Below, in pieces: positions 1,955 to 41,155 of a stretch of DNA of 43,511 nt; position 1 is the first letter of the stretch; every line of letters begins with the position of its first letter. Origin of the DNA: Ignavibacteria bacterium (GTDB taxonomy: Bacteria; Elusimicrobiota; Endomicrobiia; PHAN01); contig JBGFRZ010000067.1 of assembly GCA_041694835.1 (NCBI GenBank), forward strand, positions 1-43,511, in the 5' to 3' direction. The translations under genes and the position numbers were made by a program. The notes under the pieces were generated by a model. It was not told the DNA's origin and searched no databases. It saw only the letters and a list, made by a program, of their open reading frames with translations.

Positions 1955-1977
1955 ATTTTCATCGCCTTTAACTATAT

Positions 1978-2051
1978 GGCACAGATTACACGGAAAAGTT
2001 AAAAAACTAAAAAGATTTTCAGGTCTTTAATCTGCGTTTATCCGTGTTAAT
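1978..2051. repeat. Empty CACAGAT/ATCTG(C/T)G-type inverted repeat element between ispD and ispF
   Basis: GCACAGATTACACGGA ... ATCTGCGTTTATCCGTGTTAAT; same motif family as the flanks of the GxxExxY gene. Confidence 0.55.
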
Positions 2052-2085
2052 ACAGTTCAAGAACCGGACAAGTTCTGCGGTTCAC

Positions 2086-14099: not shown

Positions 14100-14654
14100 A
14101 TGATTAAAATAAATCTGCTGCCGCAGTCGAGAATAAAAAAAGCCGAACATCCCGAAATAATGGCGCTCGCTCAACTTGCGTTTTTCGCGATTCTGATTAT
14201 TCTCGGTTCGATGTATTTTTTGAAGACGATAAAACTAAAAACATTAGAGAGCGATGTCGCCCTCGCGCAAAAAGAACGTGACAAGTATAAGGCGATAATA
14301 GACGAACTCAACTCCATAAAGGCTTTGATGAAGGAACTCGAAACAAAAAGGGACCTGATTAAAAATCTGATGAAGGTTCGCACAACGTATCCCATTTTTA
14401 TGGAAGACCTTGTCGGACATTTCCCGCGGTCAATGTGGCTCAGCTCTCTCGGCACTCAAATATTCGATGACGGGGCAATATCGTTCAATTTTAGCGCGAT
14501 AGCTCTGGACATATATACTATAGCCGACCTCGTTAAAGTGTTCGAGGGCTCGGATGTAATTAAAAATCCCGAATTGGGGGCGATAGCGCAGTTCGGTGCC
14601 GAGCCGTCGATTACATATAACTTTACGATGAAAGCGACTTACAAAAAAAATTAA
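14100..14654 (+). CDS. pilN: Type IV pilus assembly protein PilN
   Basis: MIKINLLP motif, single TM, coiled coil. Confidence 0.92.
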   Translation: MIKINLLPQSRIKKAEHPEIMALAQLAFFAILIILGSMYFLKTIKLKTLESDVALAQKERDKYKAIIDELNSIKALMKELETKRDLIKNLMKVRTTYPIFMEDLVGHFPRSMWLSSLGTQIFDDGAISFNFSAIALDIYTIADLVKVFEGSDVIKNPELGAIAQFGAEPSITYNFTMKATYKKN

Positions 14655-15211: not shown

Positions 15212-15874
15212 ATGAAGACAGAGAACAGAGGACAGGGAACAGAGGTCAAAGTGGCAGACCACAAGGCACAAGAGCACAAGCCAGAGGACGGAGGACAGAG
15301 GACAGAGGACAGAGGCGAGGGACAAGAGGTTAGGGAATGGAAATTTTTATTCAATTCCTTGTCCCCTATCCTCTATTCTCTATACGCTATTCTCTCATCT
15401 CTCATCTCTCACCTCTCACCTCTATCCACTATTCGCTATTCGCTATTTGCGAGCCTTTTGCTTCTTATTTCTTTTACCGGCTGTGGTGAAAAAACACCCG
15501 CCCCATCCCCGCCGGTATTGTCGCCAAAAATAGAAGAGTTTACGCCCCCTCCCAGAGAAGAGGTAAAAAAATACTATTACAGAGGCGAAAAGCTTCCGGA
15601 TCCTTTCGTTCCTCTAAACGTTCAAGCCCGAGCTCTCGCTCAAACTGAACTGGTTATACCGAACATAAACAGTTTATTTTTAAAAGGTGTATTTGTCGCC
15701 GGGAAAGAACAAGTTTCAGTTTTGACGGGAGGCGGGTTGAGTTATTTTGTCAGAGGAGCGAAGCTTTATGATTCAAGAAATCGCCAGATACCCGGATTCC
15801 ATTGCATACAGAAAAAAGAGAGCATAATTATCAAATCCGGCGATGTTAAAAGGGAGATAAATTTAAGAGAGTGA
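15212..15874 (+). CDS. PilP-like lipoprotein with a repeat-derived N-terminal extension
   Basis: Lies between pilO and pilQ; lipobox FTGC (Cys codon 15482); YYYRGEKLPDPFVP resembles the PilP DPF motif. Confidence 0.7.
   Translation: MKTENRGQGTEVKVADHKAQEHKPEDGGQRTEDRGEGQEVREWKFLFNSLSPILYSLYAILSSLISHLSPLSTIRYSLFASLLLLISFTGCGEKTPAPSPPVLSPKIEEFTPPPREEVKKYYYRGEKLPDPFVPLNVQARALAQTELVIPNINSLFLKGVFVAGKEQVSVLTGGGLSYFVRGAKLYDSRNRQIPGFHCIQKKESIIIKSGDVKREINLRE
15214..15448. repeat. Heptamer tandem repeat block, purine arm then pyrimidine arm, inside the pilP 5' end
   Basis: AGAGGAC-type and CACAAG-type heptamers at 15214-15330, then CTATTCT, TCTCATC and TATTCGC heptamers at 15360-15448. Confidence 0.9.
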
Positions 15875-35361: not shown

Positions 35362-35364
35362 AAA

Positions 35365-35639
35365 ATGATGAACACAGATACAAAACAAGATGGACATTGA
35401 TGAAGTAATTGTGTTTATCTATCAGTATCGGAATCCCAATAATTAGGACGCAGATGAACGCAGAAATGTCATTCCAGCGAAGGCGGGAATCCAGAAAAGA
35501 CAAATGGATTTCCGATAGAGGCATTCGGAAATGACACTTCGTGTCATCTGCGATAATTCTGAAAATTTGCGTCCTAATCACGAAAGTTAGAAATCACGAA
35601 AAAAGTTCTTAAATTCGTGTTTTCATGTAATTCGTGGTT
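35365..35639. repeat. Mosaic of nested palindromic elements
   Basis: Empty CACAGAT element (35365-35429). ATTAGGACGCA/TGCGTCCTAAT element (35442-35578) enclosing a TGTCATTCC..GGAAATGACA hairpin (35467-35536). AATCACGAA/TTCGTGGTT element (35576-35639). Confidence 0.85.
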
Positions 35640-35649
35640 AAAATTTATT

Positions 35650-37377
35650 ATGAACATGAACGATAAAATCTATGTAGCAGGTCATACAGGTTTGGTTGGT
35701 TCGGCAATAATTAGACAACTGATAAAAAACGGATTCTTAAATATCATAACATGCAATCGGTTGGAATTAGACCTCTGCAACCAGGAGCAGGTAAAAACAT
35801 TTTTTGAACGAGAAAAGCCCGACTATGTTTTTTTGGCGGCTGCGAAAATGGGCGGCGTTTTTGCAAATAATACCTATCGTGCTGATTTTATTTATGAAAA
35901 CTTAATGATACAAACTAATGTAATTCATCAATCATTTTTGAATGAAGTTAAAAAACTGCTGTTTTTAAGTTCTGCGGACGTCTATCCCAAAAATTATCAA
36001 ATACCAATGAAAGAAGAACATTTATTAACAGGCACACTTGAAGATACCTGTGAACCTTATGCTGTTGCTAAACTTGCTGGCATCAAATTGTGTGAGTCAT
36101 ATAATCGTCAATATGGAACTGATTTTATAGTTGCTATTGCACCTAATGTTTATGGACCCCATCAACATTACGATATACTCAATGCCCAAGTCGTGCCTTC
36201 ATTGATAAAAAAATTCCATGATGCAAAAATATCAAATTCTGATGAAGTTATAATTTGGGGTACAGGGAGTCCGGTGCGGGATTTTCTATTTGTAGATGAC
36301 CTCGCAGATGCCTGTATATTTTTGATGCAAAATTACTCAGGGACCGATTTTCTTAATATCGGCACCGGAAAAGAATGCAGTATTTTTGAATTAACGGAAA
36401 CAATAAAAAAAGTTGTCGGATATAACGGCAAAATTATTTTTGATAGAACAAAACCAGGCGGTGCCGCTAAAAAACTTTTAGATATATCTAATATAAAAAA
36501 TCTGGGATGGAGTGCAAAGACAGATTTAGTGGATGGAATTAAAATTGCTTATCAATCATTTTTAGAAGAGATAGAAAAAAAGGAAATCAGAACTTCAAAA
36601 ATACACAACATTAAGTTATGCGAAAAAGATACGCTCGCTTTCAACCGAATAAAAACTACGAGCAAAGCTCTTGATGCCAATATTCAACCGGAAAATTACA
36701 AAAACAAAGTGGTTCTAAAACCTTGGGGTTATGAATTTCTGGTGTTTGAAAATAATGAAACGTCCGTATGGCTTTTATACTTAGAAAAAGGCAATTCAAC
36801 CTCTATGCATTGTCATTCACAGAAAAAAACATCATTGATTATTCTCTCCGGCAAAGCAATGAGTAATACTTTTTTATCTCGCAATTACTTAAAAGGCGGC
36901 GATGCGATAATTATTGAAAAAGGCGTATTCCATTTTACAAAAGTTCTCTCGGACAATGGATTGTTTCTGTTAGAAATTGAAAATCCCCCGAATAAAACTG
37001 ACCTCGTCCGGCTTGAAGACAGATATGGCAGGGTTACTTACGGATACGAAGGCATAACAGAAATGCAAACACAAAATCTTGAAAACTATAATTATTTTTA
37101 TTTTGAAGAATCGAAGACATATAAAAAATATGTTCACAACACCGATAGATTCGTTATTAAGTTCGAAGTGTTTACGAACAATGAGGAATTTTTACAACAT
37201 TTTCAGTTAGCAGAAAATGGCCTTTATACCGTTTGCAAAGGCAAACTACTGGATGACGAAAACGACATGTTGTTAGACACCGGCGACACTCAAAAAACAG
37301 AAGTGTTGTCAACTGTTAAAGAAATAAAAATTAGTGAAAAAACAGTTCTGTTAAAAACAATAACAAGAGACAAATGA
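35650..37377 (+). CDS. GDP-L-fucose synthase (Fcl/GMER)-like SDR fused to a C-terminal cupin domain
   Basis: KIYVAGHTGLVGSA, YVFLAAAKMGGV, YAVAK and WGTGSPVRDFLFVDDLA, then KPWGYE..SMHCH..GVFH..DLVRLEDRYGR. Confidence 0.85.
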   Translation: MNMNDKIYVAGHTGLVGSAIIRQLIKNGFLNIITCNRLELDLCNQEQVKTFFEREKPDYVFLAAAKMGGVFANNTYRADFIYENLMIQTNVIHQSFLNEVKKLLFLSSADVYPKNYQIPMKEEHLLTGTLEDTCEPYAVAKLAGIKLCESYNRQYGTDFIVAIAPNVYGPHQHYDILNAQVVPSLIKKFHDAKISNSDEVIIWGTGSPVRDFLFVDDLADACIFLMQNYSGTDFLNIGTGKECSIFELTETIKKVVGYNGKIIFDRTKPGGAAKKLLDISNIKNLGWSAKTDLVDGIKIAYQSFLEEIEKKEIRTSKIHNIKLCEKDTLAFNRIKTTSKALDANIQPENYKNKVVLKPWGYEFLVFENNETSVWLLYLEKGNSTSMHCHSQKKTSLIILSGKAMSNTFLSRNYLKGGDAIIIEKGVFHFTKVLSDNGLFLLEIENPPNKTDLVRLEDRYGRVTYGYEGITEMQTQNLENYNYFYFEESKTYKKYVHNTDRFVIKFEVFTNNEEFLQHFQLAENGLYTVCKGKLLDDENDMLLDTGDTQKTEVLSTVKEIKISEKTVLLKTITRDK

Positions 37378-38918: not shown

Positions 38919-38929
38919 ATAAATTAAAC

Positions 38930-39328
38930 GTGATAAACACAGATAAAAAAGACGATAAACACAGATATAAGTATCAGGAATTGACAGGAAGAATTTTGCA
39001 ATGTGCTTTTGAAGTGCATAATCATTTAGGTTGTGGTTTTTTAGAAAAGGTTTATGAAAGAGCGCTTATACAAGAACTGAAAGCGAAAAATCTCAAAATA
39101 GAATATCAGAAATCTATAAAGATATACTACAAAGCTGAATTTATTGGTAATTATATTGCGGATATTATTGTTGAAGATAAGGTAATAGTAGAATTGAAAG
39201 TTGTAGAATTCCTAACAAAAATCCATAAAGCACAGATGATAAATTATCTCAAAGCTACTGGTTATGAGGTTGGATTGATTCTAAATTTTGCCAAACCCAG
39301 ACTTGAATATCATCGTATTGTTATCTAA
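38930..39328 (+). CDS. GxxExxY protein (PD-(D/E)XK nuclease-like)
   Basis: LGCGFLEKVY, ADIIVEDKVIVELK, HKAQMINYLKA and GLILNF. GTG 38930 preferred over ATG 38891, which overlaps the uxaA-like gene. Confidence 0.93.
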   Translation: MINTDKKDDKHRYKYQELTGRILQCAFEVHNHLGCGFLEKVYERALIQELKAKNLKIEYQKSIKIYYKAEFIGNYIADIIVEDKVIVELKVVEFLTKIHKAQMINYLKATGYEVGLILNFAKPRLEYHRIVI

Positions 39329-39339
39329 CTTGTGGCTTT

Positions 39340-39375
39340 ATCTGTGTCCATCTAAAGTTGTATCTGTGTTAATCT
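39340..39375. repeat. Right-hand ATCTGTGT repeats of the GxxExxY cassette
   Basis: ATCTGTGTCCATCT and ATCTGTGTTAATCT, inverted relative to two AAACACAGAT copies in the first codons of the gene. Confidence 0.8.
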
Positions 39376-39381
39376 TTAGTT

Positions 39382-40020
39382 ATGAAGAAATACAAAGCAA
39401 TACTTTTTGATTTTGACGGTGTTATCGGTAAAACAATGGAAGACAATTACCGTGCATGGAAAAATGCTTTTGCAAAGCATAATATCGTTGTGACTAAAAA
39501 AGAATATTTTTTATTAGAAGGAATGAATGTAAAAAATGTTGCATTATATTTTTTGAAAAAAAACCGCTGTAGCCAAAAATTACTCAAAAAGATTATTGAT
39601 GAGAAGGAAAAATACTATCGTAATCACAATAAATTTAGACTTTATTCCGGGGTAAAAAAAATAATATCATATCTTCAAAAAAAGAAATACCTTTTAGGAT
39701 TAGTAACCGGGGGGGAACGCACAAGAATAATGAGAACATTGAGGGATAATAAATTAAATATTTTTGATGTGGTAATAACAGGAGATGAGATTAGAAAATG
39801 CAAACCAGATCCGGAACCTTATTTAACTGCCGCAAAAAAACTAAAAACTATGCCGTCACAATGTCTGGTGGTTGAAAATGCACCTTTAGGAATTGAATCC
39901 GCGCAACGCGCTGGAATACATAGTATAGCAGTATGTTCTACACTTGATAAAAAGTATTTGAAAAATGCTGATAAAATAATCAATAAAATATCGGAACTTA
40001 AAAAATATGTATCTAAATAA
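39382..40020 (+). CDS. HAD-family phosphatase (beta-phosphoglucomutase-like)
   Basis: FDFDGV, LVTG, KPDPEPY and VVENAPLGIESA. Confidence 0.9.
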   Translation: MKKYKAILFDFDGVIGKTMEDNYRAWKNAFAKHNIVVTKKEYFLLEGMNVKNVALYFLKKNRCSQKLLKKIIDEKEKYYRNHNKFRLYSGVKKIISYLQKKKYLLGLVTGGERTRIMRTLRDNKLNIFDVVITGDEIRKCKPDPEPYLTAAKKLKTMPSQCLVVENAPLGIESAQRAGIHSIAVCSTLDKKYLKNADKIINKISELKKYVSK

Positions 40021-40990
40021 TAAACTTATTTTTTTGGCAGGTTCAACAGGTTCTGTAGGTTCAGCAATACTGAAATATATAGTAAAAAATTATCCGACGG
40101 TAAAAATCCGTGCTGCCTATAATCAGACAGAACCGTTTATTCGGCACGAAAGAATAGAATATGTTAAAGGTAATTTGCGACTGGAAAAAGATTGCAAAAG
40201 AATGATAAAAGGTTGTGATTGTGCAATTATGGCTGCATCTAATTCTGGTGGTTCAAAAGCAATGACCACAGAACCTTGGATTTTTTTAAACGATAACATA
40301 ATTATGAATACACAAATGTTGGAAGCATTTTATTATGAAAATGTAAAACGGGTTGTTTATATCGGCACATCGGCGGTTTATCAGGAATTTGAAGGATACA
40401 TAAAGGAAAACGAATTGGATTTGAACAAAGACCCGTCTATCGCTTATTTTGGATATGGTTGGCTTGTAAGATTTGTTGAAAAGCTGTGCCAGTTCTGGTA
40501 TGAAAAAACTGGTATGGAAATTATTATAGTTCGTGCAGCAAATATTTATGGTCCTTATTCAAGTTTTGACCCCGAAAGGTCTTATTTTATTCCTGCGATT
40601 ATACGGAAAGCAGTTGAAAAAATGGACCCGTTTGATGTATGGGGAAGTCCTGATGTTACACGGGATGTTCTTGATAGTGAAGATTTTGCAAGGGCAATTG
40701 TTATGTTGCTGGGCAATGAGAAAATAAAATTTGATGTTTTTAATGTTGGTTCTGGTATTAAAACTACCGTTGGTGATGTGGTAAATTGGTCGTTGAAGTA
40801 TGCTGAACATAAACCATCAAAAATAAATTATGATTTAACTAAGCCAACTACAATTAAATTCAGGGCACTTGATATTGCAAAAATAAAAAAAAGCATCGGC
40901 TGGCAACCTGAATACACAACCGAAGAAGGAATTAAAAAAACTGTTGAGTGGTGGATAAAAAATAAAGATACATGGAAAAATAAAAAATGA
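40007..40990 (+). CDS. NAD-dependent epimerase/reductase (extended SDR)
   Basis: AGSTGSVGS, RAANIYGP and WGSPDVTRD. Confidence 0.85.
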   Translation: MYLNNKLIFLAGSTGSVGSAILKYIVKNYPTVKIRAAYNQTEPFIRHERIEYVKGNLRLEKDCKRMIKGCDCAIMAASNSGGSKAMTTEPWIFLNDNIIMNTQMLEAFYYENVKRVVYIGTSAVYQEFEGYIKENELDLNKDPSIAYFGYGWLVRFVEKLCQFWYEKTGMEIIIVRAANIYGPYSSFDPERSYFIPAIIRKAVEKMDPFDVWGSPDVTRDVLDSEDFARAIVMLLGNEKIKFDVFNVGSGIKTTVGDVVNWSLKYAEHKPSKINYDLTKPTTIKFRALDIAKIKKSIGWQPEYTTEEGIKKTVEWWIKNKDTWKNKK

Positions 40991-40997
40991 TAATTTG

Positions 40998-41147
40998 ATG
41001 AACACAGATAAAAAAGACGATAAACACAGATATAAATATCAGGAATTGACAGGTGCAATTTTGAACTTTGCAAAACCGAGACTTGAATATTATCGTATAG
41101 TTGTCTAACCATCTGTGTTTATCAAGAAGTTTCATCTGTGTTAATCT
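40998..41147 (+). pseudogene. Internally deleted GxxExxY cassette (36-codon mini-ORF 40998-41108 plus flanking repeats)
   Basis: MNTDKKDDKHRYKYQELTGAIL-NFAKPRLEYYRIVV* matches both ends of the 38930-39328 protein; followed by ATCTGTGTTTATC and ATCTGTGTTAATCT. Confidence 0.92.
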
Positions 41148-41155
41148 GTATTCAT

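Follow-up and report, generated by a model that had tools for sequence, protein, structure and literature searches.

What is a small gene of the GxxExxY family doing between two genes of a sugar-nucleotide operon, enclosed by inverted copies of a short word that recurs at other junctions of the same operon around a gene remnant or no gene at all? The question is raised by a stretch of 43,511 nucleotides (the window; positions 1 to 43,511 of contig JBGFRZ010000067.1, forward strand) from an Ignavibacteria bacterium (assembly GCA_041694835.1; GTDB lineage Bacteria; Elusimicrobiota; Endomicrobiia; PHAN01). The window contains an intact gene-bearing cassette, an in-frame mini copy, and gene-less hairpins, and these are most likely three decay states of one small mobile element, a selfish unit of operon junctions bounded by its arms. 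A sequence-only reading of the window had proposed such a pattern of autonomous and non-autonomous copies, likening it to transposons with MITEs (miniature transposable elements bounded by inverted repeats) or to repetitive extragenic palindromic (REP) sequences with their REP-associated tyrosine transposases (RAYTs).

Anatomy of the cassettes

The intact and mini cassettes have the following parts.

38919–39381, forward strand: intact cassette, whole; a 463-base gap between the stop of the dehydratase-like gene (ends 38918) and the ATG of the HAD gene (39382)
38930–39328, forward strand: GxxExxY / PD-(D/E)XK gene, 132 residues; start GTG 38930 or TTG 38981; conserved domain from about 38984
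38930–38968, forward strand: 5′ arm of the intact cassette; two ACACAGAT words at 38937–38944 and 38959–38966, 22-base spacing
39339–39375, forward strand: 3′ arm of the intact cassette; two ATCTGTGT words at 39340–39347 and 39362–39369, the inverse of the 5′ arm, after the stop
40991–41155, forward strand: mini cassette, 165 bases, occupying the gap between the two epimerase genes, with ATGA at either side
40995–41108, forward strand: 37-codon remnant open reading frame (ORF), made up of 21 codons from the start of a GxxExxY gene and 16 from its end
41002–41141, no strand assigned: mini-cassette arms, with forward words at 41002 and 41024 and reverse words at 41111 and 41134

The intact gene matched the family profiles TIGR04256 (E-value 2.8e-42) and PF13366 (1.6e-40), with scores of 143.7 and 138.5 bits where the curated cut-offs are 35 and 22, respectively. 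Because the profile match begins at residue 20 of the protein, the 5′ arm sits upstream of the conserved domain. Within the first codons, AAACACAGAT occurs twice, with ACACAGAT as the core of each copy, and two inverted words lie past the stop, just as the sequence-only reading had described. In the whole window, ACACAGAT is found 13 times, where 0.66 occurrences are expected, and none of 100 shuffles reached 13.

The mini cassette retained both ends of such a unit. When it was aligned with the intact cassette, its 5′ part was identical at 58 of 62 bases and its 3′ part at 40 of 46, with the middle absent; 95 codons (132 minus 37) were lost in frame at an ATTTTG (Ile-Leu) microhomology, and each breakpoint in the intact gene has an Ile-Leu pair (within GRILQ and GLILN), which the mini copy has within GAILN. 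Eight coding differences were counted by hand on this alignment, of which five are synonymous, two change a residue, and one alters the start codon. As the differences are mostly synonymous, the parent of the mini copy was a second gene still under selection. The clean in-frame deletion claimed in the earlier reading is thus borne out, and the sister-paralogue origin that it proposed is consistent with the synonymous bias. One detail was wrong: both the mini copy and the gene-less shell at 35365–35429 have GAACACAGAT as their first word, where AAACACAGAT had been named. An intact second GxxExxY paralogue that could have been the parent was not found in the window's assembly, the ORF of the mini copy matched neither TIGR04256 nor PF13366, and the exact 27-base word across its junction matched 0 metagenome contigs. 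When the mini cassette is folded, its arms pair into two 13-bp helices with internal loops between them, and the fold beats those of shuffled sequences both as RNA (z −3.2) and as DNA (z −2.7).

Hairpins that enclose no gene lie elsewhere in the window.

35362–35432, forward strand: gene-less hairpin; the mini copy and a metagenome cassette (L109) have 5′ ends that match its own, AAAATGATGAACACAGATA...
35436–35572, forward strand: second hairpin; ACGCAGAT-type arms around a different dispersed repeat (GTCATTCC...GGGAATCC); z −5.68
35574–35650, forward strand: third hairpin; CACGAAA words; z −5.29
1972–2056, forward strand: gene-less hairpin; CACAGAT/CACGGA words and the inverse words ATCTGCGT/ATCCGTGT

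Both shells that had been picked out from the sequence are present. The one at 35365–35429 consists of ATGATGAACACAGAT...TGTGTTTATCT and translates as MMNTDTKQDGH followed by a stop; the interval 35362–35432 forms a single hairpin of −14.4 kcal/mol, with a modest z of −2.15 that was equalled by 3 of 200 shuffles. The shell at 1978–2051 contains CACAGATTACACGGA and ATCTGCGTTTATCCGTGT and folds weakly (z −1.78, equalled by 13 of 200 shuffles). The GTCATTCC...GGGAATCC repeat of the second hairpin (window positions 35466–35536) encodes SFP.../...PAFAGMT-like peptides and has more than 20 matches in the genome of a sister genus (G001) and 4 in another genome (G002); those in G001 include the junction equivalent to the site of the intact cassette (contig C16; L103, 6247–6420).

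Insertion at operon junctions

The host operon encodes, in order, a DJ-1/PfpI protein, a 575-residue NAD-epimerase/dehydratase, an altronate/galactarate-dehydratase-like protein, a HAD hydrolase, two epimerases, and a NUDIX protein. In G001, which belongs to the same family as the window's genome (G000), the operon is syntenic and has the same gene order. The two epimerase genes of G001 overlap by the four bases ATGA; at the same junction, the window has ATGA, the 165-base mini cassette, and ATGA again. The DJ-1 and epimerase genes also share an ATGA overlap in G001, and their junction in the window holds 288 inserted bases made up of the three hairpin elements. Five more junctions, on contig C39 of G000, contain 91–384 inserted hairpin bases, and the corresponding genes in G001 have an ATGA overlap (three junctions) or a gap of at most 8 bases (two junctions). 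Given the ATGA overlaps at the equivalent junctions of G001, the mini cassette and the gene-less hairpin cluster are insertions into operon junctions. The junction that holds the intact cassette is occupied in G001 by an unrelated 174-base palindromic element. For contig C71, the comparison of synteny with G001 gave no match. The ATGA on either side of the mini cassette and the ATGAAC at both ends of the 35362–35649 insert may be target duplications, and selection that keeps stop and start codons intact would preserve them too.

Two of the C39 inserts (L105) are of other types. A 91-base hairpin at 14502–14592 is built of words of the kind found around four-helix-bundle genes (GTGGCT/AGCCAC; see below), and a 128-base palindrome at 15619–15746 is unrelated; both junctions are ATGA overlaps in G001. 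As hairpins of different types are found at these junctions, several element families use the same kind of target.

A younger cassette between older flanks

Between the same dehydratase-like and HAD genes, a metagenome contig (L109) carries a cassette that fills 462 bases versus 463 in the window and whose protein is 85% identical to that of the window. The proportion of synonymous differences (pS) and the synonymous (dS) and non-synonymous (dN) divergence between contig and window were as follows.

Cassette gene: pS 0.46, dS 0.72, dN 0.09
Dehydratase-like gene, 3′ end: pS 0.85, protein identity 72%
HAD gene, 5′ end: pS 0.79, protein identity 53%

Purifying selection therefore acts on the cassette gene, as its low dN shows, and its pS, below those of its flanks, dates it to after the two hosts split. 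Either this junction was entered twice by the cassette, or there was an exchange between junctions that were already occupied.

Gene-less copies across the genome

The G000 assembly (1.9 Mb in 89 contigs, 97% complete) has a single GxxExxY match. Doublets of the form ACRCRGAT-N(1-16)-CRCRGAT number 148 in this genome, versus 1 for a reversed-pattern control; this count and the excess of ACACAGAT in the window over shuffles rule out chance as the origin of the words. Hairpins made of C[AG]C[AG]GAT words are found at 91 loci, of which 69 have a partner at least 95% identical across at least 50 bases, with 61 of them in a single cluster. Long ORFs make up 89% of the genome, and yet 19 of the 91 hairpin loci lie within them. 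As near-identical copies exist that enclose no gene and lie mostly outside long ORFs, the gene-less units multiplied as such. Successive words are spaced by 10 bases in 112 of 223 pairs, by 19–20 bases in 44, and by 31 bases in 36, or about one helix turn per step. The structural criterion behind the hairpin census was lax (1795 loci versus 667 in a shuffled genome), and we used its word-classified subsets only.

These copies have the terminal inverted repeats, the small non-coding size, and the many near-identical members (69 of 91 loci) that mark MITEs. The arrangement also has a trait of REP/RAYT systems, namely a single-copy gene between inverted copies of a repeat that is dispersed throughout the genome, here as 148 doublets and 91 hairpin loci.

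Arms around GxxExxY genes in other genomes

To what extent do such arms accompany the gene elsewhere? We pooled 62 loci with both flanks present, drawn from relatives' loci in species genomes, a sample of 401 genomes of the phylum, and the window, and scored inverted matches between the 5′ and 3′ flanks above a threshold, with shifted pairs within each locus as the control. Inverted arms were found at 53 of the 62 loci, versus 1 of 50 and 3 of 61 shifted controls. Independent metagenome contigs gave a similar result, with arms at 47 of 67 loci versus 1 of 49 and 2 of 52 shifted controls. An earlier version of the test with mismatched-pair controls had given 10 of 23 and was replaced; mismatched pairs are too harsh a control because loci of different phyla have the same words.

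The closest relatives of the window protein in species genomes are 35–53% identical to it and come from Planctomycetota, Acetobacteraceae, Cloacimonadota, Omnitrophota, Chloroflexia, Nitrospirota, and other groups, and the same word family was found in contigs of Planctomycetota, Acetobacteraceae, LCP-89, and Gemmatimonadales. Arm words are nearly always C[AG]C[AG] followed by three bases, of which GAT is commonest (21 of 62 loci), followed by AAT, AAG, AAA, GAA, and GAG; as read, the arms start with GAT[AG]AAC... or AACC[AG]C[AG]GAT. When the arm words are mapped on a tree of the 62 proteins, their class changes 15 times (shuffle mean 19.3; 1 of 1000 shuffles as low), and the division between GAT and all other words changes 7 times (shuffle mean 14.0; 0 of 1000 as low). 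Shared descent of gene and arms would also give words that follow the tree. The cassettes have the orientation of their upstream neighbour at 51 of 58 loci and of their downstream neighbour at 39 of 49.

Another genome of the class, G115 (loci L092, L093, L094, L096, and L050), contains an intact cassette whose arms are GATTACACAGAT, an in-frame mini copy (L096) that resembles the one in the window, and an identical truncated derivative at three different loci. In the derivative, an ATCAG microhomology connects the 5′ arm and 38 codons to the 3′ flank. The cassette, the mini copy, and the truncated derivatives are all followed by the same small palindrome, CAGGTATAATGAACATTATACCAGG. In two other genomes (G016, contig C23; G020, contig C75; loci L013 and L014), GxxExxY-like domains lie in frames of 277–291 residues with no evident arms, which may represent a fused or duplicated form of the family.

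Word doublets and the gene across the phylum

Among the 401 genomes of the phylum sample, 21 were doublet-rich, with at least 20 doublets per genome, and 35 had a GxxExxY match. The gene was present in 18 of the 21 doublet-rich genomes versus 17 of the 380 others (Fisher 7e-19, a value computed over related genomes that are not independent). The association also holds at a finer scale. In one family (f20), a single genome among 118 has the gene, and it is the sole doublet-rich one; the same is true of one genome among 9 in another family (f25). In the window's own family, G000 has both gene and doublets, and the two other genomes have neither.

Genes of the four-helix-bundle family (23S intervening-sequence protein) occur in 104 of the 401 genomes, and we divided the sample by the presence of each gene.

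Four-helix-bundle present, GxxExxY present: doublet-rich 17 of 28
Four-helix-bundle present, GxxExxY absent: doublet-rich 3 of 76
Four-helix-bundle absent, GxxExxY present: doublet-rich 1 of 7
Four-helix-bundle absent, GxxExxY absent: doublet-rich 0 of 290

By this two-gene split, the words follow GxxExxY.

The GxxExxY protein

The motif that names the family reads G-F-L-E-K-V-Y in the window protein. Across the 62 sequences, E21, N101, and F102 (domain numbering) are invariant, and at least 90% of the sequences retain G16, Y24, D60, E70, K72, Q84, Y88, L89, and R111; the window protein has all of the family-conserved residues, including E21, D60, E70, and K72. The conserved E, D, and ExK residues make up a complete and conserved active site of the PD-(D/E)XK type. 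An AlphaFold model with a predicted local distance difference test (pLDDT) score of 96.5 has the order helix-helix-strand-strand-strand-helix-strand-strand. In a Foldseek search, the best solved match was the core of Cas4 SSO0001 (E-value 1.2e-4, template-modelling (TM) score 0.64); a restriction-endonuclease-like protein was also among the best matches, and lambda exonuclease and Hjc, a Holliday-junction resolvase, ranked further down. A sequence search for solved structures returned none that was significant (best E-value 0.35), and a protein search of the PADLOC defence families and of PHROG gave no match in either. The available part of a 2012 survey of the superfamily enters PDDEXK_3 (PF13366) as 'Unknown' (PMC3424549).

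Proposed mechanism

These results suggest the following scheme. The full unit spans about 460 bases and consists of a PD-(D/E)XK gene of 115–130 codons between inverted arms of C[AG]C[AG]GAT words about 10 bases apart. It would insert at operon stop/start junctions in sense orientation, where its transcription would depend on read-through. The mini copy would descend, by internal deletion, from a second paralogue of which no intact copy is left, and the gene-less hairpins would be non-autonomous relatives that multiplied in G000. We lean slightly towards a scheme in which the nuclease recognises the phased word arrays that make up arms of its own type, whether these are in duplex form or have been extruded into a hairpin or cruciform; a cut at the arms would lead to the copying or conversion of arm-bounded units into new junctions or junctions that already bear a hairpin. 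The enzyme would act in cis on its own cassette and in trans on gene-less copies. Binding and cutting of the arms by the protein, and the way in which a copy is made, are the steps that we infer. More tentatively, and as a possibility rather than an expectation, GxxExxY proteins in general may be the enzymes of minimal mobile elements that cross phyla, with lineage-specific recognition of arms, spread of shells, and homing of cassettes to operon junctions that already bear a hairpin, in effect a PD-(D/E)XK counterpart of the REP/RAYT partnership.

Evidence against this reading and alternatives to it

Several observations weigh against a mobile element driven by its nuclease. G000 has 15 matches to the four-helix-bundle family, 12 of which had flanks that we examined, and 11 of these 12 genes sit in the same armed design without a nuclease fold; as they are equally armed, the design is not peculiar to the nuclease. 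Gene-less hairpins of four-helix-bundle words exist too, including 34 GCACAAG loci. The same genome contains 35 CRCAGAG doublets and 45 CACGAAA hairpin loci and no gene with such arms. The arms are partly complementary, and 250 of their 404 mismatches are transversions; among the transition mismatches, 92 are G·U-compatible on the sense strand versus 62 on the antisense strand, which points to pairing in RNA, as a hint from a weak asymmetry (p 0.019; 26 loci versus 10) that arm composition may bias. Beyond ATGA, which selection for stop and start would preserve as well, no clear target-site duplication was found at the insertions. In the phylum sample, 9 of the 21 doublet-rich genomes come from one family. 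Of the 21, 20 also have a four-helix-bundle gene, so genomes that are simply prone to cassettes are a real confounder. Exceptions run in both directions: three doublet-rich genomes (G044, G057, and G063; 91–96% complete) have no GxxExxY match even at an E-value of up to 1, 17 gene-bearing genomes have few GAT doublets, and one genome with a cassette (G018) has zero doublets of its own CRCAGAG word.

The sequence-only reading had named findings that would speak against it, and these were not what we saw: inverted repeats are enriched around GxxExxY genes elsewhere far above controls, orthologous junctions are filled in the window and empty in the sister genus, and shells are not equally common in genomes with and without the gene. 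Its interpretation is therefore supported in part: the arms, the insertions, and the co-occurrence with the gene speak for it, mobilisation of the arms by this nuclease would be a further step, and the equally armed four-helix-bundle genes and the exceptions both ways qualify it.

Could the arms act in RNA instead? An element like the 23S intervening sequences, with arms that form a stem in the transcript for RNase III cutting or to insulate the host genes from the inserted ORF, with GxxExxY as mere cargo that has a function of its own, and with gene-less hairpins that spread or arise in another way, is the main rival and an unlikely explanation, for which the shared design of the four-helix-bundle genes nevertheless speaks, as do the orientation of the cassettes with their neighbours, the sense-strand excess of G·U-compatible mismatches, and the RNA fold of the mini cassette. 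The 23S element of Coxiella is comparably built, with a stem, heptamers, an S23p ORF, and an RNase III cut, in the part of its description that was available (PMC4990558). A stem in RNA leaves unexplained why the C[AG]C[AG]GAT word is kept with this protein clade across phyla, why hairpins track GxxExxY (17 of 28 genomes) and not the four-helix-bundle gene alone (3 of 76), and why 69 of 91 gene-less loci have near-identical partners, and the preponderance of transversions among arm mismatches also counts against it. The two readings are compatible, in that the stem could serve the host transcript and the words the nuclease.

Internal deletion alone, with the gene-less hairpins as mere decay products of gene-bearing cassettes and nothing moving them, is improbable. 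Microhomology-bounded deletions do occur, as the mini copies in the window and in G115 (L096) prove, and the 5′ end of the 35362 shell matches those of cassettes; but independent decay is not expected to give 69 of 91 loci a partner at least 95% identical, with 61 in one cluster, or to leave an identical truncated derivative at three loci of G115, and it would need cassettes to have inserted about 90 separate times in a genome where one gene is left. Very improbable is the alternative that the hairpins are REP-type repeats, or REP doublets forming hairpins (REPINs), mobilised by a RAYT-like Y1 (HUH) transposase or a transposase of another type, with GxxExxY an unrelated bystander. G000 does have one Y1_Tnp gene (C41, 8790–9122; E-value 1.3e-12), and a single-copy enzyme together with many palindromic repeats is the known REP/RAYT pattern, in the portions of that literature available. 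Against this stand the lack of words flanking the Y1_Tnp gene of G000, the presence of Y1_Tnp in two genomes with 3 doublets each (G001 and G002), the failure to find it in a genome with 74 doublets (G390, 92% complete), and the arms that flank GxxExxY at most sampled loci.

Relation to known systems

The nuclease-bearing element proposed here shares with REP/RAYT systems, as the available sections of the relevant papers describe them, repeats that are intergenic, dispersed without a gene, and placed around a single-copy gene, and a repeat and enzyme lineage that go together. It differs in its enzyme, which has a PD-(D/E)XK rather than an HUH Y1 fold, and in its arms, which are arrays of 7–8-base words in 10-base phase. 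REP palindromes are headed by a GTAG or CGTC tetranucleotide, according to the part of the source available (PMC3733652), and no such head was seen in the arms that were read. Furthermore, the cassettes cross phyla at about 50% protein identity, whereas RAYTs are described, again in available excerpts, as mostly vertically inherited.

The 23S intervening sequences of Coxiella and Leptospira resemble the cassettes in having a small ORF within a terminal inverted-repeat stem and tandem repeats in the 5′ arm before the start codon, and in being carried in a host transcript and regarded as selfish; the accessible text for the Coxiella element gives a 28-bp terminal stem, GACAGAT heptamers in the 5′ arm, an S23p ORF, and an RNase III cut in the stem (PMC4990558). 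The cassettes differ in occupying junctions of protein-coding operons and not helix 25 or 45 of 23S RNA, in having a nuclease as cargo, and in the many copies that lack a gene.

Like bacterial MITEs, the gene-less copies are short, intergenic, bounded by inverted repeats, and multiplied; unlike them, they are not linked to a transposase of a known family, and their partner gene encodes a nuclease without a known transposase role. The gene-less copies also resemble Correia/NEMIS elements, and the gene-bearing copy resembles homing endonuclease genes. Occupation of the same junction in two diverged hosts by a gene apparently younger than its flanks (pS 0.46 versus 0.79–0.85) would fit the latter comparison.

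Each Xanthomonas genome has 70–75 convergent pairs of G-rich heptamer arrays in intergenic positions, as reported in the available portion of one study (Rehm et al., 2015; PMC4692102). These arrays resemble the arms of the four-helix-bundle cassettes of G000; their words are unlike C[AG]C[AG]GAT, and that portion of the paper does not connect them with an enclosed gene or with mobile elements. A search of the literature, supplementary files excluded, found no description of GxxExxY cassettes, and in the excerpts available a GxxExxY gene appears in passing, as the neighbour of a reverse transcriptase. The cassette can be placed with the known repeat-and-enzyme partnerships or with cassettes like the intervening sequences, from which its enzyme fold sets it apart.

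If the proposed reading is true, the large GxxExxY family (PF13366) gains a function, and the sporadic scatter across phyla of thousands of 'hypothetical' GxxExxY genes wedged in conserved operons is explained. A new enzyme fold would join the short list of bacterial repeat-and-enzyme partnerships, and 23S intervening sequences and intergenic heptamer arrays would be tied to one cassette design. For annotation, small ORFs at junctions (MNTD... peptides, 37-codon remnants) would be remnants of elements and not genes.

Other cassettes and neighbouring genes

The four-helix-bundle loci of G000 (L003–L010, on contigs C52, C8, C55, C81, C39, C6, and C7) have purine-rich words of their own, such as GAGCACAAG, GCGAATAGC, and GTAGATAGTAG. 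GAGCACAAG occurs 195 times in the genome, and the copy on C7 has its word array upstream only. The CRCAGAG and CACGAAA word classes form the arms of GxxExxY genes in other genomes. In the host operon, Pfam assignments of the 575-residue epimerase/dehydratase (35650–37377) span its first ~298 residues only, leaving ~270 C-terminal residues without one, and a long form of this protein (578 residues) is also present in the sister genus G001.

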